Shown here piece by piece: positions 3,001 to 33,362 of a DNA stretch of 64,000 bases. The DNA is from Proteromonas lacertae (lineage: Eukaryota). The translations under genes were made by a program, and so were the position numbers. The stretch covers positions 1 to 64,000 of the forward strand of contig NGBS01000900.1 of assembly GCA_002245135.1 (NCBI GenBank). Reading direction: 5' to 3'. The notes beneath the pieces were generated by a model. It was not told the origin of the DNA and made no database searches. It saw only the letters and a list, made by a program, of their open reading frames with translations. Position 1 is the first letter of the stretch. Every line of letters begins with the position of its first letter.

Positions 3001-6000
3001 ATACAAGACTAGTAATAGATTTTGTAGGTAATCCAGTTATAACAGTGGATATAATGAATGTTATATTAGTTACTTCTACAACAGGTGCAAATCAACTAGA
3101 TTATAGAGGAATATCTGAAGTATTTCAACAAATAATTGATAATATAAACTCAAATGGTGGTTTAAGAAACAAAAGAATTAATTATGAAATAATTGATGAT
3201 CAATCAGATACAACAATTTGTTCTGATTCAATTAAAAGAAGATTAAGTGAAATAGATAATTTAACTGCAATATTCACTACAGGAGGTCAATTGTGTGTTG
3301 ATTTAGTAGTTAGTTCATTAATACAATATAATGTGAAACTATTCCATATTGGTATATTTGGAGGTGAAAGTTGTGAATCAAATGTTTTTCATTTTGGAAT
3401 AGAACCAACAACCATAGAAAGACATATAGAAATAATGATGAATAAAGGAATTAATAATTTTGGTATTATATCGACATCTGAAGCTTATCATATGAAATTC
3501 TATACTTATGCTGAAAGATATATAAATTATTTGTATGGCACTGTATCATTAGCTGCAACAGTAGAAGAAAGTATTAATGACTGTAAATCTTTAGCTCAAA
3601 ACATAAAATCAAAATTAGTAACGCAAAATACAGCCTTGTTGCTATTTGTTAATGTTAATGTTCATAGATTATTATCTACAGCATTGAAGTATGTGGGAAT
3701 AAATGATAATGACTATACAATTTTTTCATTTTCAACATATGAGAATGTGGCATTTTTAGATGATGGAAATATATTACCATTCTATTCAGTTGCTCATTAT
3801 TTTAATACAATCAAAAGTGAAGAAAATTCAAATTTTATTGAAGAGATTAAACTAAGTTTATCTAATGATGTTAAAATAAATGCATATCATGAATCAATTT
3901 ATACTGCTATAGAATTATGGGAAAGAACCGTTAAAGACTATAGTAATATTGAGATTAAAGATTTGAATTTGCAGTATTATAATTTGAATCTAAGCACTGC
4001 TGCTGGTTATATGGTAATGCATAGTAATAATATTGTTTATAGAAATATATATTTATCATATTATGATGGAAATGAATATGGTGGTTTTACTATTGTTTCA
4101 AACTCAGATTATGGATATCCAACTGCTTGGAAACAGTTTATTAACAGTGGTATTTATGTATGTGACTTTATTGATCCTTCAATTGGCCAAAAGTATAAAT
4201 CTCCAAGTATTTCAATCGGTATTATGGCATCTTTGACAGGAATTGACGAATTAAGAGGAAGAGAAATAGTATGTAGTGTGTTGCTAGTGACTAGACGAGT
4301 AAATAGAGAAGGAGGTTTAATTGGAAGTAGAATAGAAGTAGAAATATTTGATACAGAATCAAATTTTGATACATATAAGCAGAAAGCTTTATCTATTTCT
4401 CAGATACCAGAATTAAGTGCTGTATTTGGAGCAGCATGGGATGATGAATATAAAATGTTGATTCAATACTTCAATAAAGTTGGAAAACTATTCTTCTTTT
4501 CTGGAACAGCAACAAGTGATGGTTGTGAGAATTATGGTGTTGTTACTCAAGATACTTTTATACAACTCATTACTGTTACACAGTATACTTTAGTGAAAGA
4601 AGGTACAAATGAATATATAATCATTTATTCATCTCATCGTTTCAGTGTAGAGAATTTGAAGATATTTTCAGGGTTTTTAGATAGTATTAATATTAAGTAT
4701 ATTAAATATGAATATGATTCAACGAACAATGAAATATTTGAAGAAATAAGACAACTATATCCGAATGGAGTTAAAATCGTTGATGTTGGTTCTACATGGT
4801 ATGCTCTTGAAATGTCTATACGAGCAACAAAAGCTGGACTTGTTTATCCAAAGTATAAATTCTATCATTATTTTGTTGATGAATATCTATTGAATGGAAA
4901 TGAAAAATATTTTGAAGGACATATTTTCTTAAGTTCTTGGTTTGCTGTAGTGGGTAAAGCTATTTCAAAAGGTTATGAAAATCAAAGAAGTTTTTATAGA
5001 GAGTATGTAGAAACTTATTCAGATTCCATTAGAGTATCAAGTACAGCAGAAGCAACATACACAAGTGTGGAGCTATGGATAAGTGGAGTTAAAGAAAGTT
5101 ATAGTTTTGAATCATCATTAGTGAAAAAGGGAATGTTAGGCAAAAAAATAAAAGCTGGTTCAGATAGGATAAGATTAGAAATTAATAATATTGTTTCAAG
5201 AAAAATATATACAGCACAAGTGATAGATGGAGTATTAGTATTAATTACTTCAACTACTGAAGCTATCTATCCTTACTCTTATGCTAATTGGATGCCTGAT
5301 AATCAAGGCAAAGAATGCGATTGGGTAAACAATAATGGTACATACATTAAACAGAATATTAAAAGAGTAGGAATTATATTAGAGTCTGATTTTAGAATTA
5401 ATACAGAAATTTATAATGCATGGATATCTTTTAAAGATGCTTTAAATGAAATTAATCTAGAAGGTGGTATTAATGGAATAGACTTTTATGAATCATCTGC
5501 AATTGTACCACTTGATGATGTTGAGAATAGCACAATTCAACTTATAGAGAATGAAAAAATATATGCATTATTTGGATGTTTATCAATCAAATGCAGAGAT
5601 ATAGTAAGTGTTATTGCTGAAGAATATAAAAAGATGTTTTTCTATATTGGTAATAATGGTGGAGAATATTTTTCAAAATACACATTTTCTATTTCTTCAA
5701 CCATAATCCAAAATTTAAATGTAGCATTAGCATATACTAATAAAATGTATAAGAATTATTATTTGCTAATTGATCAACAAAATTAATATCTTTTTTTTTA
5801 TCATTATATACACTCAATTAGTTACTTAATTTTGTATTGATTTATACTTTGATAAAATAACAACCTTCATATCAGCACATACTAATAACCAATTGTTAGG
5901 TTATTATGAAATAACAGATAAAATAAAATGTAGTATAATTATGAGGAATATAGCATCAGCATCAAGTATTTATAATCACATGATTAGTATTTATATTTAT

Positions 6001-7716
6001 GTATTTTATGTATTTTTAGTAATTACTGTTTTGTCAAAATCAAATTTTGAAGAATGTATGGAGTATTATGTAAATAATAGGTTAATAAGATATAGATACT
6101 ATCTACTAATATTAAATTATAATCATTATGAATATTTAGATATTGATATAAATACAATAGTTGGAAGTTATATATCATTGTCATACCATCAAAGTAATAC
6201 TTATTTCAGAAATTATGCATTTAAAAAGAGAGTTAGTTCAGTATTAGATGCAATGTCTTACATATCGCCATATTATGAGAATTGCTATTCATCAATTAAT
6301 ATATTCAAATTAGCAGTTGAAAAAGCATCGCAATATGATTCAAGAAATGAATTACCTGAAAGTGACTATGTTAGATTAACTATTCCAAAAATACAATATC
6401 AATCACCTTCAGGGGTTATTACAATGACAATAAATAATTATGCAGAAAGACCAATGTATTTATTGGAAATAATTAGAGAAGATAAATTCCTTCAAGTTAA
6501 TCCAGAAATAGGTACAATTGAGTCTTACAATCCTTATCCGTTTATAACATATTTACCAAAAGAAAGTGAAAATGTAAAAAGTATAAGAATACTTAAAAGA
6601 AGTGAAATAATGAAGTGGTTTGGCTTTTGTTTATGTTTGTTTAGCATATTAGTTTCGTTATTATGTTTAATATATACAATAAAATTTAGAAAGAACAGAA
6701 TAATAAAATGTAGTTCACCACTTTATTATTATTGTTTAATATTTGGTTTAATTATGTCAGCAATAAGTATAATATATTTGACAGCCACTCCAACTTCATC
6801 TTCAGTTATATGCTATATTAGAATCAACTTATGTTTATTCTCAGTTATGTTTGTATCTTCAATGTTATTTGTAAAAGCTGCGAAATACAATTTCAGTAGG
6901 AAGAAGAGAATACATAAAGTATTATTTATCTTAATAATTAAAATAATAGATAAAAATCACTCCATTTTATATTGTAAAGATATTTTTATTTTCTTACTTT
7001 TTCCCATTGGTAGTGTCAGTAGTTTATCAAATTGTCTCTCAACCATCTTATACTTTACAGTTGAGTGAAAAAGATTCATCGTTCTTAGTTGATTCTTTTT
7101 ATGAAGAATGTTCTCAAGATGATATATTTAAGTATATTTTTTTATCTTTATTTTTCCATATAGTATAATCATCATTGTTTATGTAGTAATATATATTTTG
7201 TATGGTTTATACTTATCTTTCCACTCAAGACAAAAAGCTATTGAATTTGGTGATTCTTATTCGTTGCTTATAACTTATATTGTTGAATATATCCTTTTAC
7301 TTAATGATTTATTCTGATAGATATTCTTTAACATTCGTTTAATCTTCATGTTGATCATTTTATTCGTTTTAGAATTTGTAATAAACTCAACTCCAGATTA
7401 TTTATTGTTATTTAGAGGAATTGGTTATCCTTTAGTAATAATAGCTATTACATTAGTCCAATTCGTTCCAAAGATATTGTTTATGTTTACTGATGAATTA
7501 GCACTTGATGTAACAGACAGTAGTATGACAGAATCAATGAGTGTTCGCCAATCTCAATCATATCTTTTTTTTATCTTTACATAATCATCTTATTATTTCT
7601 TAATCATATTTACTTCAGTATCTTATTCAATGAATCATTCTATAAATCATTCAATAAACCGTTCTGCATCTCGTGCTATGTCTCAATCTCAGTCTATTAA
7701 TAGAAAGCATATATAG
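1..7716 (+). CDS. Giant class C (GABA-B-like) 7TM receptor with at least 6 tandem UrtA/AmiC-like periplasmic-binding-protein domains; 5' end lies outside the window
   Basis: Repeat units such as ISIGIMASLTG..E......VN..GGLIG..IEVEIFD are separated by C(D/N)x linkers at 685, 1854, 2997, 4161 and 5316. The 7TM region has KNRIIKCSSPLYY..., CYIRI..., FVKAAK, EFGDS and QFVPKI. GT-AG introns at about 5987, 6919-6949 and 7132-7163, plus three U12-type introns. Stop TAG at 7714-7716. Several 1-nt frameshifts in 480-1045. Confidence 0.8.
5786..5837 (+). other. U12-type intron candidate, AT-AT, 52 nt (3' end uncertain)
   Basis: 5' ATATCTTT at 5786 overlaps the apparent TAA. Branch TTACTTAAT at 5822-5830. 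Ending at 5837 rejoins the frame (QQNY-DLYFDK). Confidence 0.55.
7289..7342 (+). other. U12-type intron, AT-AA, 54 nt
   Basis: 5' ATATCCTT, branch TTCTTTAAC at 7324-7332. Removal gives DSYSLLITYIVEFFMLIILFVLEFVINSTPD...QFVPK, which is gap-free with the class C TM6-TM7 spacing. Confidence 0.7.
7560..7613 (+). other. U12-type intron, AT-AC, 54 nt
   Basis: 5' ATATCTTT, branch TTTCTTAAT at 7596-7604, 3' TTTAC. It removes an in-frame TAA and continues the Ser-rich tail to TAG 7716. Confidence 0.8.
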
Positions 7717-7872
7717 AAATAGTTTGTTACTAAGATAGTCAGTTGGTTGTATGCATTCATAAAGTTTCTTTTGCTCAACTATGAATATTGTTTATTTACG
7801 TTTTTAACCAAAAAACAAAATACTAACAAACGACTAAAATAATATGTTCGTTGGCTTGAAATATTAATTTGA

Positions 7873-9082
7873 ATGATGTTGAATTTCTCTAGATCAGTTA
7901 AATCTTTTGGTAGAATCTACCCACTAATGCAGTGCAAGAATGTTCTATTTTCAATGTCAGCAATTAGAACTCATATACCAGAAGCAGAAGACTATCGAGT
8001 GGTATTTAGCAAATTAATAAATAAATCCAGTTGGTTGAATTTAGACAAAATCACTGTTGTCTCAAATGAAGATAGATTCTATAGAGGAAAAGGCTTATAT
8101 CTAATTTGGTTAAAGCAACATTATAATGTTTCAGCATCATCTCTCGCTTACATATTTTACTTTTTAGGTACTGTTGGGCGTTGTGATGAATCAATTAAGA
8201 TGTTTGAAAAGCATAAATCAAATCTGAAGTCTTCTTATCCAAATATAGAAATATGTTCACAATTTTTAGCATCTATAAGATATTTAACAGATGTAAATAC
8301 GGTAGACAAATACTTCAAAGAAATTCTAAATTATTATCCAAAGGATATTGATATAACAACATCATATGTTTCATTCTTGTTTAATAATAAAAGCTATACA
8401 AATATTTATGAAATATATGACAATATAAAATCTCAATCAGTTCATTTATCACCAACAATGTTTAATATCATGTTATTAACATGTGTAAAACTCAAAGATG
8501 TGGAAAAGATGAAGAATATATGGAATTATCATTGTTCATATAATGGAATAACAACGTCAAATGATTATCAAATCTACATGAGTGGTTTATATGAAGAAAA
8601 ACAGTATAACGAAATACTTGAGATATTTAAGACGATGCCAGACAATGATATAACAAAAATAAATGTTGGTATGGTTATGATATTAAGTAATTGTTCAAAA
8701 TACTTAAATTCTTATGAAAAATTAAAGGATGTTTGTATGAAAATGTATAAATCATATATTCAAGAAAATAAGGATGAAGTTATCAAAGATGAGTTATTAT
8801 CTAATCCTGAATTTTTCAATAATATATTGTTCTCAAATGCTATAACAAAGTCTGAATTGAGTGAAGAAATGAAATTATATTTGGAAGAGGATAATAAAGT
8901 ATTTAAAAATGCATTTATCAAATCCAACAAGTGAGTTGTTTTATTCTGTTTCATATTATAATAATGGTTTATACAACAAGATACTTTCAAAATCATCATC
9001 TAAAAACAAAGAAAATAAACAAATGAAAAGAAATAAAGTATTAATTGATGAAGTAAATAAGTATAAGGAGATGAACAAATAA
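7873..9082 (+). CDS. PPR-like helical repeat protein, probably organelle-targeted
   Basis: 353-aa ORF with an Arg/Ser-rich N-terminus and PPR-like units (TMFNIMLLTCVK..DVEKMKNIW; DYQIYMSGLYEEKQYNEILEIF). An intron starts GTGAGT at 8931; the last exon is uncertain. Confidence 0.55.
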
Positions 9083-9206
9083 GAATTTACATCAATCTTT
9101 TTTTCTATGTATTTTTTTTCATATAGACAATAAATATATGATAATATTAAACAACATATTTAAGGTTTAAAAAGAAAAGTAACACAAACTAATTTAATCT
9201 GTCGAT

Positions 9207-9917
9207 TCATTCAATTTTCTCTTTTTTTCTTTGAATTCTCTCTAATTTTTCTTCTTTCTTTCTCTTAGCTATTTTCTCTCTCATTATTTCACCTTGTTTC
9301 TTCAAAATCTTCTTAATTGTATGTTTACTTGCTGTATTAGTTTCATCTACTTTAGTTTCTGTTTCTTTCTTCAATTGATTTTTACTCTTTTTATTACCAA
9401 ATGCAGTAATTAAGTCTTGCCTCTTTTCTAAATAAGATCGTTCTTTTTCTGTTTCTTTAATTTCAGATATAGTAGTGTTTTACTGTTGATTCTAAACTAT
9501 ATACTCTATCAATCTTTGTAACATCTAAATTATTGTTTGAAGAATCAAAAATTCCAAAATATATACTACAATAACAATAATAATGTAATCTATACTTTTG
9601 AGATGAATTAGAAAAATTTGAATCATAATTATTGCCTTGATATAGAATCATTGGTGTTTCTGCAACTAGTTTTCTTCTCATTTGACCTTTTTTTGATAAT
9701 TTCTTATATTCATTAAGAAAAATATTATATAATATAAATAGACATAAAAGATATTCATATGACTGGAATTTTATATGATCTTCTCCTTGATTTGACAGAA
9801 TTGATGAAGTTGGTGGACCTCCAGGAAAGGAAACTAATAGATTATAGAAAATATAATACCAACAAATGGCGGTTGTACATCAGCATTAAGTTTATGGCAA
9901 GTTATATGACATTTCAT
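9207..9917 (-). CDS. RNA polymerase I subunit RPA49/POLR1E-like (N-terminal part only)
   Basis: Spliced model reads MKCHITCHK...VSFPGGPP...RRKLVAETPMILYQGNNY...YFGIFD...QDLITAFGNKRVKNQLK. Two GT-AG introns, one U12-type intron and one 1-nt frameshift near 9480. Confidence 0.55.
9704..9754 (-). other. U12-type intron, AT-AA as assembled, 51 nt
   Basis: Minus strand ATATCTTTT from 9754, branch TTTCTTAAT at 9720-9712. In-frame join SYE-KLSKKGQMRR. It would be AT-AG at 9703 if the nearby A7 run is one base short. Confidence 0.7.
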
Positions 9918-10008
9918 TTTTGATCAAGCTTTTTGTTTGACTATTTTTTTAAATATTTGAAAGTTTTAAAGGAATTAGTGAATATTTACTCCGATCAAAT
10001 ATTTCTTA

Positions 10009-11049
10009 ATGTCTAGTAGTGAAATAAAAGCCAAATTAGATAGTATAATCGCCGATTTAAATCCTTCAAAAGAATGGGATAAGAACGAGAAAGCTTTAAA
10101 TGAGATAATTGTATTTATTGATACATTATAATTGAAATAGAAAATATTTAATGAATCAAATGAAGGAAATGTAGAAGATTTACAGAATATAGCTATTAAA
10201 ACGAAAGAGCTAATATGCAAAGCTATTAAGAATTTAAGATCAAAATTGTGTATAAGTGCATGCAATTGTATCACAACTATGTCAAAAGTCTTAAAATCAA
10301 ATTTCAACTGTTGTTCAGATTATTATTTTCAAATATTAATGAATAACACAAATAATGGTGTGTCTGTAATAGCAAATTCATGTCTAAATACATTACAATC
10401 CATAATATCATCAACAAAAATTGGTTATTCAAAGCTTTTGTTAATCATTTATAACTCTTCAAAATCTAAAAATTACTTTACTCGATTATCAGGTGCAAAA
10501 TGTTTTCATTTAGCAATTACAAATTGGATAAATTTCGGCCATGAAAACCACTTTCAAGAATATTCAACCTATTTAGTTTCATGCTTAAATGATTCAAATC
10601 AAATGTGTAGAAATGAAGGAATAGAATGTTATAATTCTCTGTTGAAATTATTCCCAAATAAAATGAATGCAATATATGATAAATGTAATAGAATGATACA
10701 AAAGAAAATCAATACGTTTGATAAACATACTGTATTAGATAACAATATACCAACAGAAAATAAATCAAAGCTTACAAAAATAGATAAGCCAAAAGTAATT
10801 TCAAAAAATGTTATCATAAAGCCAATAATCAAGAAAGAAGAAATAGTTGAGATGAAAAAGGATGTGGAAACAACAAATCAAAAATCATCTTTTGCTATAG
10901 GAAAGAAATTGTTCAAGAATTTGAAAACATTAGGAAAGGCAAAGAGAATGAATTTATCTAAAGCAAGTGATCTCAATAAGAGGAAGAAGATAAATGAGAA
11001 TGAAAATAAAAGTAAAAGAATTTGTTTATCAGATATAACAAATAAATAA
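10009..11049 (+). CDS. CLASP N-terminal (TOG/HEAT) domain protein
   Basis: EWDKNEKAL...IKNLRSKLCISAC...VIANS...SKN...LNDSNQMCRNEG; 30-nt GT-AG intron at 10111-10140. Confidence 0.7.
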
Positions 11050-11210
11050 TCCATTATTTTATTGTTTTTATTTGATTATTACATTAGCATAAAAGAAGAT
11101 GAAGAATTAACAAAACAATATTTTTCAAATCTATTTTGAATAAGCTTGTAACTCACTTCAAGCCATTTGTGTTATAACACTAATTTTTTAGAACTGCATT
11201 GTTATATAAG

Positions 11211-13454
11211 ATGAAAATAAATTCAGTTTTTATACTACTTATCCTTTCATCCCTGTCTTCATACGCATTAGGTTTTAAAATCAATCAAAAATTGATTTGT
11301 GATGGAAGTAGAAGATTTAGAGCAGATACAAAGCTCAAGTCCTGTATAAAGGTTGGTTATATTAATAATTATTACGCATTGTATGTTAATCAATACAACT
11401 CAATAAAACCAATACTTTCTTCAAATTCAACAGAATTATATTTTTCTATATATCCTCCACTTCCCGATGGTTTAAATTTAAATGCAAAAACAGGTGAAAT
11501 TAGTGGTACTCCAACAGTAGAACAATCTCTTCAAAATTATGTTGTTACTGTTAGATATTTCTTCTCAAAACCAACTAACTTCTTTGTATCAATTTCAATA
11601 GATAATAGGAACAAAAGATCTCTTGAAAATGAAGAAATATTCTTAACATCAGAAAAACACTTCAAACCATGCATACACTATAAACAAGAGAGTTATGAAT
11701 TTTTCATAGGTTTTGAAGATTCGACAGATGAAGCGTTTTGGTTAAATCCGGAAGAAGATGCTGAATTAGTTTACTCATTTGGTGAATCTAACAACAATCT
11801 ACCCTCTACTATAACAATTGATGAAGAAACAGGTAAAATAAGTGGAATTGCTCCATTAGGTTCAAACGGAACATACACTGTATCAATAGTTGTACAATTG
11901 AATATATCATCTGAAACAAAATCAGATCCTTATTATTTAACAATTAATATTATTCAACCATACTGTCCAAGTAGTAATAATTTCCCAGTAGGATTACCTG
12001 GTCAAAAAGTAGAAGGTGAATGTGATGGAGGTATGAAATTTGCTGTATGTCCAAGTGGTGAAAAATTACCAAAGTATTCTCAACCAGATACAACTTTGTG
12101 TAATCTTCAATTCACCTATACTAGTTATACATTTAAGTTCTTTTCATATTTTATGAATTCTAGTAGTGAAGCTAATCTTGGTGGAGGTATTGGTAGTTTT
12201 GTAATGGATGGTATTCCAGATAATTTGAAACATCTTTTTTCAATTGATGATTATGGAAGTGTAACTTATGATGGTAGAAATAATGCATTTAAAGCTACAA
12301 CATCCACAACTGTAAAAATAACTGGAACAGCTCCTGATGGGAAAAAATTAACTGTAAATGTAAGATATACAATTCAATTAAACAAGTGTCAAGGTGATAA
12401 AGAATACTCTTCCGTAAATATTGGTTCAAAATCAGTCAGTAAATTGGGATGTAAAGATGGTTATGTTGGTAGTGAGAAATATAGAGATTGTCTAGCAACA
12501 TCTTACCCAGCTGAATGGTCTGAAGAAAAAGGATGTACATTAGGTCCACAAATTACATATCCTAAAACCCTTTATACTTATTATTATAACTTTTACGATT
12601 CTTATGCAAAACCAAATTCTAATGATGAATTTGATGAGTATTACATTACAGCTGGTGTATTACCTACTGGTTTAGTTATGCATCCAAATGGTACAATCTC
12701 TGGCGCTCCAACTGCTGGTGGTATATATGAAATTACTATTCAAGGTAAAAAAGCTGATTATACATCCAATTTCCTAAATATTACAATTTTCGTTTATGAA
12801 CCGTTCTGTGAAGATGAAAGTGGTAAAATAGCTCATAGTGGTGAATATTATAAGAATTATACTGAATGTCCAAGATTATATGAAGGATATGTTGGGTATT
12901 ATTGTATGTTGGATAAATTAGATCCACAATTTGCACCTAATAACACAGGAATGGAATATTGTACTGTTATTAGAACTTTAGCACCAACTACTCCTTATAT
13001 TCCAATTGATTATACTTATACTGCATTTACTATATTCATAAATGGAGTTGGTAAAAAAGAACTGAGTGTATCTGAAGATAGTGTATTGATAAATTCTGTA
13101 ATAGATGTATTTAATAAGATTGATAATACATTGTATTTTACTGAAGATGATGTATTAATCACCTTAATGGATTATTCTTCAGGAACTCTTTTAAGATTCT
13201 TACAAAGCAGTTATACTGAGATTGTAGTTCAAATCACACACGAAAAATCAGAAGCATCATCTGTTACTGCTGTTATTAGAGATTTAGTTTCAGATTCATC
13301 AATGTTAGTTCAAACAATTAAAGATTTTTCAGATGATCAATTCAGTGATATGACTTCTATTACTGTCCAACAAGGAGCTAAAGGATATGATGGTAGTTGT
13401 GTATCAAATCCAATAGTGATTGTTGTGTTAGTGTTAATAATGGTTTTACTATAA
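11211..13454 (+). CDS. Secreted/surface protein with putative Ig (He_PIG) repeats, Cys-rich spacers and a C-terminal hydrophobic anchor
   Basis: Signal peptide MKINSVFILLILSSLSSYALG. Repeats LPDGLNLNAKTGEISGTP, LPSTITIDEETGKISGIAP and LPTGLVMHPNGTISGAP. Ends in IVIVVLVLIMVLL, possibly a GPI signal. Confidence 0.8.
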   Translation: MKINSVFILLILSSLSSYALGFKINQKLICDGSRRFRADTKLKSCIKVGYINNYYALYVNQYNSIKPILSSNSTELYFSIYPPLPDGLNLNAKTGEISGTPTVEQSLQNYVVTVRYFFSKPTNFFVSISIDNRNKRSLENEEIFLTSEKHFKPCIHYKQESYEFFIGFEDSTDEAFWLNPEEDAELVYSFGESNNNLPSTITIDEETGKISGIAPLGSNGTYTVSIVVQLNISSETKSDPYYLTINIIQPYCPSSNNFPVGLPGQKVEGECDGGMKFAVCPSGEKLPKYSQPDTTLCNLQFTYTSYTFKFFSYFMNSSSEANLGGGIGSFVMDGIPDNLKHLFSIDDYGSVTYDGRNNAFKATTSTTVKITGTAPDGKKLTVNVRYTIQLNKCQGDKEYSSVNIGSKSVSKLGCKDGYVGSEKYRDCLATSYPAEWSEEKGCTLGPQITYPKTLYTYYYNFYDSYAKPNSNDEFDEYYITAGVLPTGLVMHPNGTISGAPTAGGIYEITIQGKKADYTSNFLNITIFVYEPFCEDESGKIAHSGEYYKNYTECPRLYEGYVGYYCMLDKLDPQFAPNNTGMEYCTVIRTLAPTTPYIPIDYTYTAFTIFINGVGKKELSVSEDSVLINSVIDVFNKIDNTLYFTEDDVLITLMDYSSGTLLRFLQSSYTEIVVQITHEKSEASSVTAVIRDLVSDSSMLVQTIKDFSDDQFSDMTSITVQQGAKGYDGSCVSNPIVIVVLVLIMVLL

Positions 13455-13518
13455 ATGTATATGTTATTATTGCTTATTTTTCACTAAACATTTTTATTTT
13501 TTGGAAATTTATAAATAA

Positions 13519-14715
13519 TTAAATTAACAAAACAATCTTTTGATTGATTCTATCTATTTTCAATATTCCATCAGCATATAACTTATACATATATTTCTTA
13601 ACTTCATTTATACTTATCTCCAAATATTCACTTACACTATTCTCATACTCTTCTATAATCATTTCACCATCATGAATATCTAATAAATATAAACATATTC
13701 CATATATATTATTTGTTTTTGCACTTTCTATAATTATTTTTCTCAATTCATCTTTCATTTCTTTCAATTTATCACAACTATCATTGTTTATATTTACTTT
13801 ATAAGGAGTACGAATTTCATTCATTGATTCAATCTCTAAATGAATATTCTTACACTCTCTTTTCAGTTTTTTAATTTCTTTTTCTTTTTTGCTTATTTCT
13901 TCTCTTATTTCTTCATCACTCTTTTTATTCTTTTTGTTTTCATTTATATTCTTTAATTTTACTTCATTACTATCATATTGAACTTGTAATTTTTCATATT
14001 TCTCATTCAATTCTTTCACATTATACTATAAATATTAATTGAAATTCTATATATACTAATTTGTGTTCATATTCTTTTCTCAATTCAGCACATTCTTTTT
14101 CATAATTACTTAATAATTCAATTTGTTTTTTCTTCTCGGTTAATTCTTTCTCTAAATCTTCAATTTCGTGGTTATATTCTCTTTCTTTTAACATTAATTC
14201 AGTCAATTCTGCTTCTTTGCTGTGAAGTTCATTTTCTAACTCTTTTTCTTCCATAGATTCTTTTTTAGCAACAGTTTTCTCTATCTCATCTTCTTCATAC
14301 TAAATAACAATAGTAATGCATAGAATACTTTACTTAATTCTGAATTAATACTTCTTATAGACGATTGTAAACCAGCATAAGTTGATCTTAATAAATTTAC
14401 CTATATAATATATGATTTATTTGCCTTTTATACTTGAGATATAATTTCATTTAATCCCTGAGAAGAAGCGATTAACTCAATCTCATCAAATACTTCCGTG
14501 ACTGTCTTTCTATTTGCATATTGTCTATTATTAGTATTAACATTATTACAATACGGATTATCACAATAGCTATGTAATCTAGCAATTTCTGAATTTCTTG
14601 CTAATCTTCTTTTAAATGGTCTAATTTCATTTAAATGGTCATCTTCAGGACATAGCTGCTTAGTTGATTCTGCCAAATTCTGTAAACACTCCAAGATTGT
14701 TGAAGAATAAGCCAT
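13519..14715 (-). CDS. Coiled-coil protein of unknown function
   Basis: Three ORF fragments joined by short GT-AG introns; E/K-rich heptads. Confidence 0.6.
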
Positions 14716-14786
14716 TTTTGTTTATGTATTTAAATTTGTATTTCAAGCCGATTGTCAAGCATTTCGTATTGAAATTTTCTATTTAC

Positions 14787-15479
14787 ATGCAAGGGATAGC
14801 AGAAAATAATTTCGATTACCTATTTAAATTATTATTGATAGGCGATACTGGTGTTGGCAAGAGTAGGTATGTCTATAATAATAATTAATATGTGTTTAGT
14901 ATTTTGATAAGATATACAGAAAATAATTTCAGTCATAGCATTCAGAGTACAATCGGAGTAGATTTTAAAGTAAAACTAACCGAAGCGAAAGGTAAGAAAA
15001 TAAAAATGACAATTTGGGATACTGCAGGTCAAGAACGTTTTAGAACATTAACAAGTTCATATTATCGAGGAGCGCAGGGAATTATGCTAGGTATTTCTAT
15101 CTGATTATAACATTTTCTAGTTTATGATGTAACAAGAAGAGAGACCTTTGAAAATTTAGGTGCATGGGTAACAGAAGTAGATACTTATAGTCCTAATGGT
15201 GGTAAAGATGTAATAAAGTTACTAGTAGCAAATAAAATAGATATGGAGGATCAAGCAGTTTCAAGAGAAGAAGCTGAAGCTTGGGCACGTAGTAAAGGGA
15301 TGTTATTTGTAGAAGCAAGTGCAAAGACACGAGTGGGTGTAGATCAATGTTTTGAAGAATTAGTTCATAAAATATTAGATAGTCCAGTATTAATTGCTAC
15401 AGCTACAAGGAATCAAGGTCCTACTCATACAATACATGATCCATACACTCCCGCATCAGAACCTGGTGGGTGTTGTTAG
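14787..15479 (+). CDS. RAB18: Rab18 small GTPase
   Basis: [48 protein letters not shown] and a C-terminal GGCC; two GT-AG introns. Confidence 0.9.
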
Positions 15480-15576
15480 ATTTAACTAATTAATACATTA
15501 TAATTTTTTTTATTGGATATAAATACTATTGAATTATTTAAGCAAAAGCAAAATTTATAAATAAGTATAAATATAT

Positions 15577-16626
15577 CTATTTGTTAACATGCTTATTCTT
15601 ATCAAATGCATTTAGATTATCTTTACTTCCCCATAATTTACTAAAAATATCTCTATCCCTTTTCAGTAATTTAGCATCTAATGGACTATCTTCAGCATTA
15701 ATAATCAACTGTTTTACACCTTGAATTGAAGCAGAAGGATTCTTAGCAAAAGGATCAATGAAATCATTTATATCTAATAAAAACAATAAACATATATATA
15801 TATATTATATATTATACCTTTCTCTAAATCTTCTTTATTACTAATCATTTCAATATAACCCAATTCTTTAGCCACTGCAGGATGTATCTTCATACTACTA
15901 CCAATTAATTTCAACGCTTTATCTTTCCCTAATATATGTACTAATCTACCAGCACCACCCCAACCAGGTATTAATCCTAATTTACAATGAATAAACTGAA
16001 TCATTGCTTCACTTCGTCATTATACGATAATCACAGGATGTTGTAATCTCTGCACCACCACCAATAGCATACCCTTCTATTATGCAGAGTGTGATTAAAG
16101 GAAGATTTCTTATTCTCATTAAATTGTCTTGCATCATTGCACACATTCCGATTTTAGAGACTTTGTCATTGAGAAATTGCTTAGAGGTTGAGAGATCTGC
16201 TCCTGAACAAAAGGTATGATCGGCTCCTTTAAGTATTAAAACATTTCCATTGAAAGATTCAAGTGCAGTTAAATGAATTGAGAGTTGTGCAACCATTTTT
16301 GCATTTCATTGTTAAAGAATCACATGATTAAAAAATTTATAACATAAAAGATATCTAATAGCATTTTTCTTTGTTGGATTATTGATTGTTAAAGTGGCAA
16401 CATTTCCTTTCGTTTCTAATATGAAATTACCTGATCCAGGTCCTATCATAGTATAAATTAAAATATAAACATACTTGAAGAGAAACTCTTTTTGTAACAT
16501 TTCCATTTGATAAGGTTCATATCCCACATATTCTCCTAATTTTGATCTTCTTATCAGTGATTTAGAATATTGACAAAATGAATTAGCGAAACTTCTTTCA
16601 AATGAATGAGATAAAGCGAAAAACAT
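15577..16626 (-). CDS. Enoyl-CoA hydratase/crotonase family, ethylmalonyl-CoA decarboxylase (ECHDC1)-like, with probable organellar presequence
   Basis: LTINNPTKKNAI, TFCSGADL, AIGGGAEITTSCDYR, HCKLGLIPGWGG; one U12-type intron; 1-nt frameshift near 16010. Confidence 0.8.
16304..16354 (-). other. U12-type intron, AT-AA, 51 nt
   Basis: Minus strand ATATCTTTT from 16354, branch TTCTTTAAC at 16319-16311. The join AG|T restores the crotonase NA-x-S-x-x-M pattern (NAISAKM). Confidence 0.75.
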
Positions 16627-16706
16627 ATTCTGCAAAATGGGTTATTGAAAAAAGTTGTATCATTTTTGATAACCAATTTAGACATTTAAAAAGCATTATA
16701 TTTTTA

Positions 16707-17752
16707 ATGGCTGTTAGACCTCTCGATGCTCAAATAGAAGATGTATTTTGCAAAGTGCATATATTTCTTACTAGTTATACCAATGCAAATGTATATCAGA
16801 AGCTGAAGTTAAATCTCTTTGCAACAGAGCAAAGGAATTATTAATCAATGAAAATAATGTGAAAAGAATCCATTCACCTGTCACTGTATTACAGTTATAT
16901 TCATTATATAGGTGTGTGGTGATATTCATGGTCAATTCCATGATCTTTTGAAGTTATTTGAGGAGGGAGGTAAATGTCCTGAGACTAACTACTTATTTTT
17001 AGGTGATTATGTTGATAGAGGCTATCGTTGTTGTGAAACATTTTTACTTCTTCTTGCGTTAAAGGTACGATATCCAAACCGTATTACATTATTACGTGGT
17101 AATCACGAAACAAGACAAATTACTCAGGTGTATGGTTTCTACGATGAATGTTTTAAAAAATTCGGATCAATCAATGTATGGCGTTATTGTACAGATATAT
17201 TTGATTATTTAACAATAAGTGCAATAATTGATGGATCTATATTTTGTGTACATGGTGGTTTATCACCAAATATTATTTCATTAGATCAAGTATAATTTAT
17301 ATATGAAATCACATTATTTATAAAATATAGATCCGTTTAATTAATCGTAGATGCGAAGTACCTCATGAAGGTGCTATGTGTGATTTATTATGGTCAGATC
17401 CTGAAATTGTTGAATCTTGGGATATTAGTGCAAGAGGTGCTGGTTTCGTGTTTGGACATAATCAAGTGTCTGAGGTATATATATTATATATCATTATAAT
17501 ACATAGTTTAACAGATTTAATTGTTTGTCTAAGATATGTAGAGCCCATCAGTTGGTAATGGAAGGTTACAAAGAAATGTTTGATAAACAATTAGTAACAG
17601 TGTGGTCTGCACCAAATTATTGTTATAGATGTGGAAATTTAGCCTCAATAATGAATATCACAAATATTACCTATAATTATACTGTATTTGAAGCATCAGA
17701 TCGTCAAGACTCTGATCCTCCTGTCCCCACAGTGTCTGAATATTTCTTGTAA
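16707..17752 (+). CDS. PPP4C: Ser/Thr protein phosphatase 4 catalytic subunit
   Basis: [60 protein letters not shown] and a C-terminal YFL; four GT-AG introns. Confidence 0.88.
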
Positions 17753-18001
17753 TAATAGATATATTTATAGGTATAAATAAATAATCATATATTTTAATAA
17801 TAAATAATTAATTCATATATACAGATCTATTATTAATAATATTATTATTATTACTGCTAACTTGATTGTTGATTTATGTTTTTGTGGGAGTATCTATTAT
17901 TAAATAAATACATATAATATTACAAACACTAAACAAATAAAACATATTAGATTTTCCTAATAACACTAGACTAACTAATTATAATTAAACTAATCTACGA
18001 G

Positions 18002-18637
18002 TCAATTGGTATCAATTTTTGGCATTTTATTTGGAGCATTACTACTACTATCAGAAGAAGAGAGTAAATTTCTAGAATCTACTAATGCTTCTGGAATATT
18101 GTCCATAGCTAATGGTCTCTTGTATGTTGCTCTTTTATGAGATATTATAATATTATCACCTGCTTCTATTCTTGCTATATCAAACAGTAGTTTTTGATAT
18201 CTTGCTCTAATATCTTCTGGGCTTTTTCCTGGTATTCTTTGACTAATTAGAACCCAACGATCAGTAGAATCTCCTACATCTCTCAGGCCTTGTTCAAATA
18301 ACGCATCTTCCTCATAAGTCCACTCAGAATCAGAACCGTTCTTGGGATATAATTCATCAACATTTTGTGAAGCTGTATTAGCAATCTCCTTTATAATATA
18401 CTTATTCTAAATATAAATACTTGTAATTTTAGAAAATATTTATGCGCGTGCCTTTTAACCTCATTAAAACTTTTGGTAGCCACATAGTCTGTGATTGCTT
18501 GCCAACCTATACAAATTATTCACATTTTCATACCTTTATCATCATTAGCATATCTTTCGAGACCTTCTACAAATTTCTGATGTTCAACAACTGTCCAATT
18601 CTAAAATATATTTTTGAAATATTTATACATCTTCCAT
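18002..18637 (-). CDS. Two-Myb/SANT transcription factor (SHAQKYF class)
   Basis: Not in the ORF track. Spliced model reads WTVVEHQKFVEGLERY..GWQAITDYVATKSFNEVKRHAHKYF and WTYEEDALFEQGL...DRWVLISQRIPGKSPEDIRARY; three GT-AG introns. Confidence 0.85.
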
Positions 18638-18793
18638 AATGAGAAATTACAAATTAAAAATTATTAACTACTCAAGCTTGCTCAAACCTTGATACTTCAT
18701 CCAATCATTTTTCTTTTGTTGATATTTTCATCAAATAAATAAGAATACTAAAAAGAAAACTCATATAAACAAAAATCTAATTATTAATAAGGA

Positions 18794-20367
18794 TTAGCAC
18801 GTTAAATTCAATGGTTTCGATGAATATCCACCTGTTTTTTCGTACTATTTCAAGTATAGATAAAAATAATGAAATATTGTGTATGTATATATATACGAAA
18901 TTCTTTACTTGTTGAAAATACTCTTTTGCTTGAGGATAATTACTATCTGCATTTAAAACAGTTTGAAAATCTTTTATTGCTTTCTGCAAACTATTCTGAT
19001 TAGTTAACCTAGTAAATATATTTTATAATTAAATAATACGCAACAGCTCTTACAAAATATGCATCAATATAATCATCACAAATTTGAATGGCTTGTGTAA
19101 GAAGGTCAATAGCTTCTTTGTATTTCCCTTCTTGAGTCTTTTGCTTTCCTAACATCGTTCTATTAAAATAAAATAATATAGATTATTCCTTTCTTTTGCC
19201 CATTTTTGATTTTGTGATTCTCTCATATGATCAAAATAGAATCTCTCTTCAAATGTGTCTGTATTGATTAGTGATTTATTTGGATATACTCCATAGAATC
19301 TAATCATATTGTCTAACGAATAAGGATTATTGAAATAATCATCATTTTCTAAATCTTTATTATACCTAATAACAATTATAATTCTTATATAAAATACGAT
19401 TTGTCTTTATTATCGATATAATACTGTAAATTATTCATTTTTGAAAAACCAAAGTACGGATTGTCATCAATAGGAATATTATTCTTATAATGATTGTTGT
19501 GATTTCACAATATCACCATTTTCAATACCACAATTTGATAAAGCTTTATCAACTGATTTATTACTTCTCATATTTTCAACAATTTCATGTATTGATGGAA
19601 TAATACTTGGTTTATCATTTTTATTGGCTGTTTCAAATGTTGGTATAATAATTGGGGAATGTGGTGGTGAAGGTAAAGGTAATGCTGATGATAATAGTAT
19701 TTGTTAATTTTGAATCACGAGGAGTATTTGGATTATGTTCAACATTGTTATTAAATTTAGGAGGTTGTTGTAATTCTTTTGATCTTTTCGGTGAAGGTGA
19801 AGGTGAATGTGAAGAAGTAGTAGTAGAAGAAGAAGAAGAGGAGGAGGAGGATATTGATATATGTGAATGAGAATGAGAATTATATTTTTGATGAAAATTT
19901 GTGTAAGAATCTTTTATTTTTGGTTTATATTGTTGTTGTTCTTTATCTATTATCTGAGATGAACTATGATGCGAATGAGTAGAACTAGAATGATATCTAT
20001 CTCTATAATTCTTTGAACGAGATCTGGAATGGGATTTATGTGACTTTGATGAATGCGAAGATTGATGAGAATTGGGCGAATTATAATGACTGTGATGATG
20101 TTTTGGAGAATGGTAGTGATGAGTTTTTCTAGTTCTACTATCTGTTTCATAGTTATTTTTCATTTCATATTCATTATTCTCTGATCTCTTCCTTTTATAA
20201 CTATTATCATCCATTCCATTATCTCTACAATCTTCATTTCTTTGTTTGTTTGAATTACTACTTCGATGAAGGAATATTGGTGGTTTATCTTGCTTATCTG
20301 TTGTTAAACTACTTAATAAAGGTCTTGTTGGTCTTATTGAATTCGAAGATGCATTATTTAACGACAT
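18794..20367 (-). CDS. TPR protein, TTC14-like, with a His/Ser-rich N-terminus
   Basis: FNNPYS...RESQNQKWAKERTMLGK...EAIDLLTQAIQI...DAYFVRAVAL...QKAIKDFQTVL. Several frameshifts in 19400-19700; 3' end approximate. Confidence 0.6.
19160..19188 (-). other. Putative non-canonical GA-AG intron, 29 nt
   Basis: AG|GAATAATCT...TTTAATAG|A. Removal is needed to keep the frame WAKE-R-TMLG, and no GT or in-phase GC donor is nearby. Confidence 0.55.
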
Positions 20368-20454
20368 AAATCAAATTCAAAATTACCAAACGAATCTATT
20401 TTACTAATTATTCCAAAAAATAGGGTCGTTTTTAATTTTGCATTATGATAAATT

Positions 20455-22893
20455 ATGGCTACTAAGAGAAGAAAACTAGCTCAATCTGCAGATAATGATG
20501 AGGAAGTAAGATAAATATTGCATTATATTCATAAACTAGGGTGAAGATGAAGTGTTTATACTAAAACATAAGAATACTGCTTTAGCAGATCAGTTTTTTC
20601 TTCAGAAGGGTGAAATAAATAGACTAAAGGAAGAAAATGCAAAATTAGCGATTGATATTCAACATAGAGACTCATATGTCCAATGTCTGTCCAATCAGTG
20701 GAATAATTTGCATGATTCAATTGAATTACTTAAATCAACAATATCTCCTCCGACTGACGTATAAATATATACAATTATTAATTATATTTTCTTTTAACTA
20801 GTCCCCATCCTGTAATATATATGAATCCTACCTTCAATCCTTAGACTCTTTCCTAGACTTAGATTATTCAATGATAGGCAACATAGACATTGATAAATAT
20901 GAAGGAGTATAATATTATCAATTTTAATTGTTCTATTAGACTGTTGATGTAAAAACTGACACTTGTAAATTTGAATCAGAAATTACATCCCAGTTTAATT
21001 GGGTAAATGCTACAATCAAAGACTTTATTTCGTTATTAGGTAATATATCAATAAACAAAGAAGCAGTTATTGAAGCTCAAATATCTGAACTAGACAAAGT
21101 AAATGCAACGCTACAAAGCTATAAACATACAGTATATATATATATATATATATATATCTGTAAATAGAAGAGAGAATCTGACAATAAATACAATAGTTTA
21201 TTACACAAATATAATACTTTAAGTAAAGATTTATTATCAATGGAAAAGAAGTTGCATCTCTACGAATTAGAGATATTAAATTATAAGAATAATACAGTTA
21301 GTGCTAATTCTAGTGCTACAAAAGAAGAACCAGTAAATATTAAACAAGAACAATCATCATCATCTTCATTATCATCCTCAACAACAACAACAACAACAAC
21401 AAATAATAATAATAATAATAATAATACAATATCAGAACCTCTTCAAACTTCAACTCAAGCCTCTTCAAAACCACTTTCAACCTCTACAGATCCTAACGAC
21501 ATTAACGACGTCTCTGAATTAAGACTAATGTTAAAAGATAAAGATAACAGACATGAAAAATTACAAGAACAATTTCAGAAATTACTTGCAAGATTGAATC
21601 AACTACAGTATCAACAATCTGATGAAGCTAATGGTGGTGGAAGTGATGGTAGCAATGGTAATACTACAAATCCAACAATAGTAGCATTGCAAACAAAGGT
21701 AGATGAATATGAGAAACAGATAGAGGACTTTAAAAAAGAAATAGAGAAATATCAAGAGATTAAAGTAGAAAAAGATGAAGAGATTATGTATGAAAAATCA
21801 AATTATAAAAATGTAATATCAGAGCTGTCAAAAAGATATGATAATGAATTATCAAGAATTACAAATGAAAGAATTAAATTAAATGAACAAATTAAATCAT
21901 TAAAAGATCAAGTGAAGGAGTATCAAGATAAAGAAAATGAAAGGGAAATATCTTCCAAAACATTTAAATATTATGAAGAGATGATTTCTAACTTGACTAA
22001 ACAATTAGAGACTGCAAATAAACTGAATCAAGATTTAGGAGCTAATTGTAAAGATCATCCTGATGAAGAAACACTATTGAAACAGATAGATACACTTAGT
22101 ATATATATATATATTGTATGAATTATATAAAATTAGATGTTCAATTACAACAACTGACTGAACAAAATAAGAATTTATTGACTCAAGTAAGAGGTAAAGA
22201 TTTATATATTGGTAAACTAACATCTGATAAATTGAACGCTGAGAATCTCAAAATCGATTTAATGAGAGAAAAAGAATTGTTATTAAAGCAAGTCTCAGAG
22301 AGTAAGAAGAATGAAGAGAACTGTCAAAATACACTTAGCGACTATAAAGCAACATTTGACTTGTTTGAAAGACATGTATGATCAAGTTTTATATATATAT
22401 ATAGAAGAAAGATGTAGAAGAAGAAAATGGACAGTTGGCTAAAGATAAACAACAATTAAGTTATCAACTTACTGATATCCAATCAAAATATAAAGAATTA
22501 TCAACGAAATCTGAAACCAATGAATTGAAGAATAAAGAGATGTACACTAAGATCACTGAACTTACTACTGCATTAGAAAACTGTAAGAAGAAAAAACGAA
22601 AAGCTGAAGACGATATTAAGGTGTATAAGAGAAGATTAGAGAATAATGGACAAAATGTTGATTTAATTGATTCTGCAGAATTAGAAACTTTGAAATTACA
22701 AAATCAGGATTATAGAATAGCATTAATGTGTAGTTTGTGTAGCGATAATAGAAAGAATTGTGTTATCACTAAGTGTGGACATATGTTTTGTAGTGAATGT
22801 ATTGAAAAGAATTTTAAAGCAAGAAATAGAAAATGTCCCAAATGTGCTTGTCAATATGGACAGGAAGACTTCAAATCAGCATGGTTGGATTAA
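20455..22893 (+). CDS. BRE1: E3 ubiquitin ligase BRE1 (RNF20/40) homolog
   Basis: Long coiled coils and a terminal RING, CSLCSDNRKNCVITKCGHMFCSECIEKNFKARNRKCPKC; about six GT-AG introns. Confidence 0.85.
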
Positions 22894-23037
22894 GAAATAT
22901 ATATTAATTTTATTTGTTTTCTTTTTCTTACTACATATATAGGTTTAAAAGACACTCACTTCTTTACATAAATTTTTCATTTTTACTTACACCAAGCCAA
23001 GCTTATTTTTCATTCTGTTTGTTATTGTAATTGATGA

Positions 23038-23616
23038 ATGGATAACTGTGATTGTAGTTTTGAACATGATTTTAAATTAAATTCTTCTGAAAAGCCAGAT
23101 TATAATTATGATATATATCAGACTTTGTGTTTCGATTATGATTTCTTAGATGAACAAAACAAATCGCCCGACTGTTCTGATAAAGAACAAACGAAAGACA
23201 GTTATACAAATGATTATTTGTTTGATGATACAGATTATACAGAAAACGAAGTACAAGAAGATAGTTTTATTATATATACCCCTAAGAATGTACTACAGAA
23301 ATCTATTGATTTTATCGAAGACCCAGATAAAGTTATTTGTAAATATTGTAATACAAAAATAGAGAAATCAGAGTGTTTTGTTTTTAAAGAAGATTCTAAT
23401 TCATTTGTATGTATAAATTGTGCAATTAAAGGACATATATCACAAAAGAATTTGATAGATTGGGAAGAAACTCATTCAAAACATGATTATCCTAGACTAA
23501 AAAGATGTACTAGGTGTGGTAGATACAAAAATAAGAATAGATTTAAAGATAGAATAAAGTATTGTAGTTATTGTTCACTAAAAAAGAAACTGTCTTATGT
23601 GTATAAAAATAAATAG
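23038..23616 (+). CDS. Hypothetical protein with CxxC zinc-finger pairs
   Basis: 192-aa intronless ORF with CKYC/CINC and CTRC/CSYC pairs and an acidic N-terminus. Confidence 0.6.
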   Translation: MDNCDCSFEHDFKLNSSEKPDYNYDIYQTLCFDYDFLDEQNKSPDCSDKEQTKDSYTNDYLFDDTDYTENEVQEDSFIIYTPKNVLQKSIDFIEDPDKVICKYCNTKIEKSECFVFKEDSNSFVCINCAIKGHISQKNLIDWEETHSKHDYPRLKRCTRCGRYKNKNRFKDRIKYCSYCSLKKKLSYVYKNK

Positions 23617-23750
23617 AATTTTAACTTAACTACTGTGTCTATATATCATTTTTATTTAATAAAACAAGCAATAGTAAAATTCATTTTAATTTGTTTAAAT
23701 TATTGTATATTAATATATGCTTATTATAACTATATAACAATTTGCCATTT

Positions 23751-24249
23751 TCATGGTAAAAATTGTGGTCTTTGTACTGGTATGTCTAAAGAATTATAAA
23801 ATGGAGTACTTTCATCATCTGTTAGAATAGTCATTGTCGAAAGTATGTCAACAGTAACTGCTTCAACTGGGGGAGGTCTGATTGAACATGGACAATTACA
23901 ATTACCATGCTTTGGACACATAAAGGTTTTGGCTGGAATTACTGGAACTCTATTACGATGAGCACAATTAATCTAAAATTTATAATAACATTAATAACAA
24001 TACTATGATAAATATCAACAGAAAAATCAAAATCAAAATTAGAAAACAATATGGATTTAAATTAAATATGAAATAGAGTGTAAATAGTCCAATGCACAAT
24101 ATAAGCCACTGAAAAGTTAAGAAAACATAATAGTCTATAATACAAAGGATATAACTATAGCAGAACCACAATAAGAGTGTAAACACCTTGTATTTGACTC
24201 ATTTAGCTTCTAGAATATGAATAATAATAATTTATACTGTTGGTAACAT
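23751..24249 (-). CDS. Small two-TM protein with a Cys-rich cytosolic segment
   Basis: Four-exon model MLPT|KLNESNTRCLHSYCGSAIV|WLILCIGLF...IFII|INCAHRNRVP...QFLP*. The frame is consistent only with the U12-type intron removed. Confidence 0.65.
24109..24152 (-). other. U12-type intron, AT-AG, 44 nt
   Basis: Minus strand ATATCCTTT from 24152, branch TTTCTTAAC at 24124-24116, 3' TTTTCAG. A phase-0 join links two different reading frames. Confidence 0.8.
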
Positions 24250-26209: not shown

Positions 26210-27685
26210 ATGGATCAAAGAACTATCAACCAATTGTTCTCACCAACAACCTATAATGGATCAAATGAGGAACCCTTACCAACACCAGCAGTTAAGCAAC
26301 TAAATAAAAGAGTTGATGAATTGCTAGCTTACACGCCCTCACAATTTTCATTCTCTCCTAACGATGTCAATATATCAAATACAGTCACTCCATCAAGGCT
26401 TATTATCTCTCCAAGTACTCCAATTACAAAAGACAAAATCCCATTTAGTAGATCTAATACAGCAAAGAAACATTTTCATGGCGTTACTTTAACACCAGAA
26501 GATTTAACATCGCCTCCAAATCATTTCAGCCCACTTCTTTCTTCAAGAAAGAAATTCAAATCAAGCACTTCAAACAACCAAAATGGAAATAGAATTATAT
26601 TATCTCAATACGATCAAAACATCACAGTAATAACTGAAGATACTGATAATTACATTCTAACCAACAAGCCAATCGTTTCATTCGGAGGAGTACCAATAGG
26701 TGAACCACATATAGAAACATTAACATTAAGAAATAATAGAAAATATGATTTAAAAATCAAATTAGAAATGCATTTTGAAGATCAAGACATTACAGAATCT
26801 GATGGTTATAAACTCCTATCCACAAATACTTTAGACTTAAAAGCATATACAGATACAGTAATAAACATCCAATTCTCACCAAAAAGGAATAATCAATATT
26901 CTGGTATTATATTTGTATCAGTAGTAGATACAGATGCATTATATCAAATACCATTATATGGGTATGGAGGAATATCAGATTTAACATGTTATGTCTTACA
27001 AGATCCAGTAGAAATGAAACACAATAAGAATAATAGTGTATGGGAAGGTATAATTGAGATAGTGAATAGTGGTACAAGATGTGCTACAGTATATGCTTTA
27101 TTAGATGATCCTGAACATGAATTAGGTAAAGAATTTGCTAATAGATTAGAGATTACACCAAATTGTTTTACACTGAATCAAAATGAAAGACAAACAGTCA
27201 ATGTAACCTTCTCAGAATGTCCTGAAGATAGAGATAATATTAGAATCAATGGTAATTTAGTATTCTCTATATTAATCTCATGGGGTGATGAAATACAAAG
27301 AATGAAAGCATTTTATAAAAGACCAACTGAGTCAAACTCATTCAAATCACCATTATATGAACTAATAGGAGATAATGCAGAATTAAAAGCTGATATTACA
27401 AGAGAAGAATTGAAGTATATTGAACAATTACAAAGCCAAAAAGCTATTGATCTTCGCGTATTGAATGAAGAAGATAATAAAGAAAGTGGTAAAATGATTG
27501 AATTAAATGATTTTGATAAGATATTTGAGTATTTCAATTGGACTAATTCATTACATTCTAACTTTGTTGATTTTCATCGTAGATCATTATTATTAGATTC
27601 ATCTTCATCATCAGGTTCATCGCCTCTACAACCAATACAAGAACCAAATCATATAAGTGATGGATCATTAAGTGATATATCACCA

Positions 27686-27738
<53 letters not shown>

Positions 27739-29576: not shown

Positions 29577-29608
<32 letters not shown>

Positions 29609-31702: not shown

Positions 31703-31741
<39 letters not shown>

Positions 31742-33325: not shown

Positions 33326-33362
<37 letters not shown>

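Follow-up and report, generated by a model that had tools for sequence, protein, structure and literature searches.

The 64,000-nt stretch of a gene-dense contig analysed here (the window), which has a GC content of 26.9%, was selected for six short interruptions of coding frames that carry the signals of U12-type introns. These are distributed over four genes located within its first 24 kb (Table 1; introns are identified in the text by the position of their first nucleotide). Three of them interrupt a single gene, which encodes about five tandem periplasmic-binding domains and the seven-transmembrane region of a class C G protein-coupled receptor (GPCR), and for which we found 38 relatives, several exceeding 2,000 residues in length. 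The others reside in one gene each. For the A49-like protein the match in Pfam spreads 98 residues over 72 profile positions, an excess that nearly equals the length of two in-frame introns (27 codons), and the frame found neither a usable match in the ESM Atlas nor a match in the PDB.

Table 1. Predicted U12-type introns and their host genes in the window.
Feature	Position	Strand	Length (nt)	Ends	Phase	Base +6	Branch box	Remarks
U12-type intron	5786..5837	+	52	AT-AT	2	T	5822-5830	class C GPCR-like gene
U12-type intron	7289..7342	+	54	AT-AA	1	C	7324-7332	same GPCR-like gene as 5786
U12-type intron	7560..7613	+	54	AT-AC	2	T	7596-7604	same GPCR-like gene as 5786
U12-type intron	9704..9754	-	51	AT-AA	2	T	9712-9720	RNA polymerase I A49-like gene
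U12-type intron	16304..16354	-	51	AT-AA	2	T	16311-16319	enoyl-CoA hydratase/ECHDC1-like gene
U12-type intron	24109..24152	-	44	AT-AG	0	C	24116-24124	small hydrophobic protein, no known family
GPCR-like host gene	4..7716	+						PF13433, PF13458, PF00003; host of introns 5786, 7289 and 7560; 5′ end uncertain
RNA polymerase I A49-like host gene (weak assignment)	9207..9917	-						PF06870, E 0.00097, under curated cut-off; one frameshift in model
ECHDC1-like crotonase-fold host gene	15577..16626	-						PF00378; homologs named ethylmalonyl-CoA decarboxylase
Small membrane-like host gene	23751..24249	-						gene model; two GT-AG introns flank the U12 intron; 5′ end uncertain

A preliminary description of this DNA had listed the six segments with their donors, boxes, lengths, ends and coordinates, all of which were confirmed by a direct check of the sequence: in each case the coding frame is broken and becomes restored at the proposed end. 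The donors share the form ATATC[C/T]TTT and the boxes the form TT(A/C/T)(C/T)TTAA(C/T). Compared to the U12 donor consensus RTATCCTT, which was taken from a study on Physarum (bioRxiv 10.1101/2020.10.12.336362; here and below, statements on published work refer to the consulted parts of each source), two of the six extended 5′ sites are perfect and four carry a T at +6, with TTT at positions +7 to +9 in all of them, and each box departs from TTCCTTRAC by one or two changes, mostly from C to T. The predicted branch A is located, in coordinate order, at positions −9, −12, −11, −10, −9 and −9 relative to the intron end, and position −2 is an A throughout. The 5′ site, the branch box and the short fixed spacing between branch and end, with no pyrimidine tract, that characterize U12 introns are all present. 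Every donor starts with AT, four of the six introns end on AA or AT and five on a dinucleotide other than AC.

It is the combination of both signals that distinguishes these sites. The donor motif ATATCYTT is not enriched by itself, with 29 sites compared to 22.3 ± 5.2 expected and at least 29 found in 13 of 100 shuffles. Together with a TTNYTTAAY box within 60 nt downstream it occurs six times, compared to an average of 0.49 over 100 simulated windows, none of which contained more than 2, in a test that is somewhat circular as the box pattern was derived from the preliminary description. The six occurrences are exactly the introns listed in Table 1. The equivalent combination with a GT-type donor is absent from the window (0 observed, 0.14 expected), and none of 111 sites combining RTATCY with a weak box appeared convincing as a further U12 intron when inspected by eye against our gene model. 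The assignment to the U12 type, the exclusive use of AT donors and the lack of a GT-type counterpart, as originally proposed, are all supported. We conclude that the six segments are likely U12-type introns, whose ends are likely of the AT-AN kind.

Retention of the segment would introduce a stop or a frameshift in five of the six cases, the segment at 9754 being stop-free and in frame. The gene model used in our analysis was self-trained, seeded from the 71 best introns of a first, over-calling model (243 introns) and with A forced at position −2 of U12 ends, and it picked exactly the six known coordinates as U12 introns. Across three penalty settings the same model contains 93–98 introns of the U2 (GT-AG) type, 84 of which score above zero. 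These have a median length of 33 nt, start with GTAT in 78 and end with TAG in 79 of the 84 cases. The U12 introns exceed them in length (44–54 nt, p=0.0004), although the tail of the U2 distribution extends into the same range (4/84 at 45 nt and 6/84 above 50 nt).

The evidence for the position of the 3′ ends differs between introns and consists of protein homology in two cases, weak homology in one and the reading frame in three. On the protein level, homology fixes the predicted AT-AA ends at 16354 and 7289. At 16354, this end permits a gapless alignment with 12 of 15 homologs, namely those that span the junction, with a summed score of 1747 compared to 1551–1609 for five other ends. At 7289, the sum over seven spanning homologs is 1000 compared to 947–977 for four other ends, and the AT-AA end is preferred outright by four of the seven. 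No AC or AG is found within 20 nt of the box at either of the two introns. The 52-nt end at 5786 is the only one in frame with an A at −2 near the box. It is preferred by the best homolog (P0147, 379 vs 367–369), while summed homolog scores tie lengths of 49 and 52 nt and a comparison with the internal repeats of the GPCR-like protein slightly favours 61 nt; an AC located 10 nt beyond the intron end is out of frame by one base. In the intron at 7560, an in-frame AC is found 9 nt past the box and retention would lead to a stop. The support at 24152 comes from frame and motif. The same applies to 9754, the least secure of the six ends, where the length is a multiple of three and where the intron could also end on AT-AA after 54 nt, or on AT-AG if the assembly contains an indel, since an AG follows 1 nt past the AA beside a run of A.

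The use of nearby GT-AG sites, which the preliminary description had raised as an alternative, is rejected at three of these positions: at 7289 by its summed homolog score (939 vs 1000 for AT-AA), at 24152 by the stops that both candidates produce, and at 16354 by the lack of any such site. At 9754, an in-frame open GT-AG alternative of 57 nt with the atypical donor GTCTAT is present.

Two of these positions might be old. The open reading frames of relatives of the GPCR-like gene run into introns until they encounter a stop, and their read-through peptides provide indirect evidence. At the codon interrupted at 7289, read-through yields Y-I-L-L in the window, Y-I-F-F in P0145 and Y-I-F-L in P0173, as would be expected for an AT donor of identical phase, and C-I-I-Y-I-Y in P0158, which fits a GT donor. 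Eight of 11 family members carrying the anchor motif show no intron at this site. P0153 ends with I-Y-L-F near the position of the intron at 7560, an ending that would fit read-through of a shared donor. The 7289 position is apparently common to the window gene and divergent relatives, and the peptides as a whole suggest that positions are old and shared and that the intron type has changed once between U12 and U2. A scan of metagenomes with the alignment of the enoyl-CoA hydratase (ECH)-like protein retrieved 67 pattern matches and two loci, neither from a close relative; an animal-like locus has no intron at the position of 16354.

In the minor spliceosome, the small nuclear RNAs (snRNAs) U11 and U6atac pair with the donor and U12 pairs with the branch box. 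We consider it probable that the six segments are removed by this machinery with a 3′ end that is set by distance, and that their design was inherited from an ancestor shared with Blastocystis, followed by a drift of the ends towards A and T. The 3′ cut would be defined by the separation from the branch A instead of the identity of the last base, with the first suitably spaced A-N past the branch A serving as 3′ site. The claim of an acceptor set by distance from the branch appears likely. The observed separation of 9–12 nt matches the 9–12 nt described for Physarum (bioRxiv 10.1101/2020.10.12.336362) and is near the optimum of 11–13 nt reported in a review emphasizing the importance of this distance (PMC3584512). 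The companion claims, that the last base is free and that a change from C to T is tolerated at +6, are supported as well, with AT-AT, AT-AA, AT-AC and AT-AG ends all present and a T at this position in four of six donors. Since most departures from the consensus are of the C to T kind, G-U wobble pairs would be kept with unchanged snRNAs, and compensatory changes in these RNAs are probably not required. With only weak selection acting on the last base, a mutational bias towards AT would have moved the ends from AC and AG towards AA and AT, a bias reflected in the GC content of the window compared to 55% in Blastocystis ST1.

The inherited part of this explanation relates to the minor introns of Blastocystis. 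Gentekaki et al. (PMC5608401) have described 346 U12 introns in 319 genes of Blastocystis ST1 as ‘typically’ AT-AC, and Larue and Roy (PMC10639083) 253 U12 introns in Blastocystis with a median length of 39 nt, 77% of which are AT-AC. In the underlying ST1 table (PMC5608401 S11 Data), 339 introns begin with ATATC, 336 with C and three with T at +6. Our tally by hand of 99 of the former and all three of the latter rows (n=102) yielded 59 AC, 37 AG, 3 AT and 3 AA ends, 43 thus differing from AC. Of the 99 sampled rows, 92 are 37–44 nt long and one row of 140 nt is perhaps mis-annotated. ST1 rows starting with GTATCCTT are of U2 size (29–33 nt in 25/25), and one gene (OAO18147) holds three U12 introns. 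The window and ST1 thus have in common AT-only donors, short introns with a box near the end, all four AT-AN ends, several introns per gene and a U12 size class located about 10 nt or more above U2 introns. The remodelled design that the preliminary description had considered new, AT-only, miniature, AT-AN and of a size class of its own, is therefore already contained in the ST1 table, and the free last base and the clustering are likewise present in published Blastocystis data. We further observed that about 36% of the sampled ST1 U12 introns are AG-ended, a share undiscussed in the text of PMC5608401 examined, and that many ST1 branch boxes read CTTCAC, CTTCAT or CTTGAC.

Besides these similarities, the two systems differ in several respects. 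T at +6 is found in four of six introns in the window but in 3/339 in ST1 (p=9e-7), AA or AT ends in four of six compared to 6/102 (p=0.0005), and the length of 44–54 nt exceeds the median of 39 nt, all of which is expected from AT drift. The branch A appears by eye to be a few bases farther from the end and positions +7 and +8 are not relaxed in the window, whereas the higher share of non-AC ends (5/6 vs 43/102) is not significant (p=0.09). We regard the system in the window as a version of that of Blastocystis which has undergone drift, probably in a sister lineage. This placement is consistent with data from Lind et al. (PMC12129017; preprint PMC10690189), where the GC content of Blastocystis genomes ranges from 21.5 to 55% with none listed near 27%, and where Proteromonas lacertae is at 27.0%. 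The GPCR family 3, leucine-binding, BTB and CEP192 domains, all of which are encoded in the window according to Pfam, are counted 116, 54, 105 and 3 times in P. lacertae (Table S5 of the same study, which spans ten genomes), compared to 0, 0, 0–1 and 0 in eight Blastocystis genomes, and the domain content of the window thus matches the former and not the latter. Also distinct from Blastocystis, gene ends in the window carry encoded stops and show no TGTTTGTT pattern. The host is probably a Proteromonas-like opalinatan and not Blastocystis, with other AT-rich protists as a less likely possibility. The same table lists for P. lacertae the minor-spliceosome domains of U11/U12-25K, RNPC3-like, RBM48, CCDC84-like and ARMC7 proteins, which are of relevance to the window provided that the placement is correct, and an intron common in position and size to Proteromonas and Blastocystis has been described in one gene (PMC5953543). 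The closest homologs of window proteins reach 81% for UBA, 88, 85 and 65% for EF1B-gamma and 63% for ECH. Our literature search retrieved no report of U12 introns in Proteromonas, with Zahonova et al. 2023, which may bear on novelty, located outside of the search.

The AT-AN kind has been accepted as a class of minor introns and is known from human and Physarum (PMC8280824; bioRxiv 10.1101/2020.10.12.336362). Physarum polycephalum likewise has donors with T at +6, AT-AG, AT-AA and AT-AT ends and a separation of 9–12 nt between branch A and intron end. Its perfect donors, however, are mostly GT (3021 vs 627 AT), non-canonical ends are a minority and the box is of the TTTGA type, in combination with a changed U12 snRNA (bioRxiv 10.1101/2020.10.12.336362). 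In contrast, the boxes in the window are near canonical and of the TTAAY type and all donors are AT, which places these introns outside a Physarum-type system. The A-type (AT-AN) introns of animals and plants are alike in donor, branch consensus, variable last base and distance-dependent 3′ site (PMC8280824; PMC10639083; PMC3584512); there, however, most minor introns are of the GT-AG subtype, non-canonical ends are found in about 4% of the conserved ones, and the minor class as a whole makes up less than 0.5% of introns.

With six introns among about 100, the share of U12 introns in the window is about 6% (exact interval 2.2–12.6%), and the preliminary description had concluded that minor splicing is expanded. 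A truly expanded system, where several percent of introns would be of the minor type with mostly AA or AT ends, as a second lineage with a Physarum-like gain, differs from our explanation only in genome-wide numbers, and we regard it as possible but doubtful. At the genome-wide share of 0.94% found in ST1, six of about 100 would be improbable (binomial 0.0004, compared to 0.08 at a share of 3%), and a large GPCR family with common U12 positions could multiply introns. Still, the observed number is no proof of expansion, because ST1 itself attains six U12 introns in 29 of the 10,322 windows that result from sliding a frame of 100 rows over the sampled parts of its table (row order being assumed to equal gene order) and because three of the six share one gene. 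The window was also picked for the feature, U12 introns are confined to its first part (6 vs 34 U2 introns in the first 24 kb and 0 vs 50 in the remaining 40 kb), the excess per gene is small (4/28 window genes vs 319/6544 ST1 genes, p=0.045–0.069 with approximate gene counts) and the TTTGA box of Physarum is not used. The local density would likely reflect clustering, half of the introns being located in a single member of a large GPCR family, and the genome-wide share would perhaps amount to 1–3%. A raised share is plausible. That a Proteromonas-like opalinatan would carry minor introns as at least 3% of its introns, all starting with AT and mostly ending on AA, AT or AG, is in our view conceivable, with the odds against it.

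Certain observations count against the explanation that we favour, namely distance-set removal by the minor spliceosome of introns inherited from an ancestor with Blastocystis. Removal from mRNA at these ends is likely but predicted, and four of the six ends are mainly based on the reading frame. A search of the window with Rfam detected no minor snRNAs and returned one tRNA match only. In a tree of EF1B-gamma with 27 chosen rows, the window copy is part of a clade of five rows that is itself unplaced, A49-like domains are counted zero times in P. lacertae (PMC12129017) compared to the weak match in the window, a discrepancy that would point either to an overlooked gene or to another organism, and AT-AG intermediates are called disfavoured in a review (PMC3584512). 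About 20 frameshifts in our gene model of the window reduce the confidence in the ends at 9754 and 5786, which an indel would turn into AG or AC. Finally, the near-identical EF1B-gamma copies by which we gauged the error rate may have been homogenised in the assembly, in which case this rate would be understated.

The same frameshifts, together with one surplus base in the ECH gene, the AG one base past the end at 9754 and the AC at 5786 that misses the frame by one base, could indicate that the introns are ordinary AT-AC or AT-AG introns whose AA and AT ends result from assembly errors. We consider this improbable. The errors seen are indels, occurring about once per 1–3 kb, and not substitutions; in an alignment of about 1,200 columns the EF1B-gamma copies, aside from a patch of 12 substitutions, show two indels and no substitution, and four AA or AT ends generated by substitution errors thus look improbable. 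Indels could not alter the ends at 16354 and 7289, where neither AC nor AG is within reach and the AT-AA junction aligns without gap, and curated AA and AT ends are found in ST1 as well.

Even less likely is an origin of the six introns as copies of a mobile intron (introner), or their removal as AT-type introns by the major spliceosome, despite similar lengths and local clustering. Their interiors are no more alike than shuffled sequences (15 pairs, z −0.7 to 1.8), so that they do not constitute a recent mobile family, and the 7289 position is seemingly common to divergent relatives; as for the major spliceosome, the GTAT starts and TAG ends of the U2 introns are unlike the six. Least likely of all are unspliced segments with chance motifs, for which the unenriched donor and the open in-frame segment at 9754 could be invoked, in light of the compound motif, the stops and frameshifts in the other five upon retention, and homologs lacking the segment at 16354 and 7289.

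Further observations concern other parts of the window. A probable GA-AG intron of 29 nt (19160-19188, minus strand) interrupts a TPR-like gene whose frame is restored by its removal, although a misread GT donor might also account for it; introns of this kind have been described in Blastocystis ST1 (PMC5608401). A CEP192-like gene of about 10 kb (26210-35998, plus strand) is intronless, contains a very long Q/N/S-rich insert between the Pfam domains D5 and D6 and shows at least seven frameshifts resembling assembly indels. A tRNA gene is located at 53237-53308 (plus strand; RF00005, 69 bits). The two near-identical EF1B-gamma genes (53438-54940, minus strand; 56605-about 58100, plus strand) flank KIN17 in inverted orientation and differ by a cluster of 12 substitutions confined to 46 nt of coding sequence, a pattern suggestive of patchy gene conversion. 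Both copies contain an unusually long, AT-rich intron of about 246 nt (about 57577-57822 in the plus-strand copy) with an internal ATATCTTT that lacks a branch box.

Our analysis has implications for annotation and for the study of minor splicing. Gene finders that are limited to GT-AG or AT-AC introns would break genes of this kind and could yield false gene losses, for which the A49-like gene, with its AT-AA intron and a frameshift and with no counterpart counted in the published table, might be a possible candidate. A last intron base that drifts with base composition would provide a natural test of whether the minor spliceosome chooses its 3′ site by distance only, and a genome where every minor intron is A-type a natural test of the role of CENATAC. 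If minor introns, all starting with AT and mostly ending on AA, AT or AG, were to reach a share of at least 3%, hundreds of genes would be mis-annotated, and this would be the first genome with ‘non-canonical’ AT-AN ends as the rule and a 3′ site defined by a ruler alone. Larue and Roy (PMC10639083) have considered recent gain as a possible origin of the U12 introns of Blastocystis and asked for relatives to compare. If the lineage placement holds, the window provides such a relative, and short AT-only minor introns would predate the genus Blastocystis.

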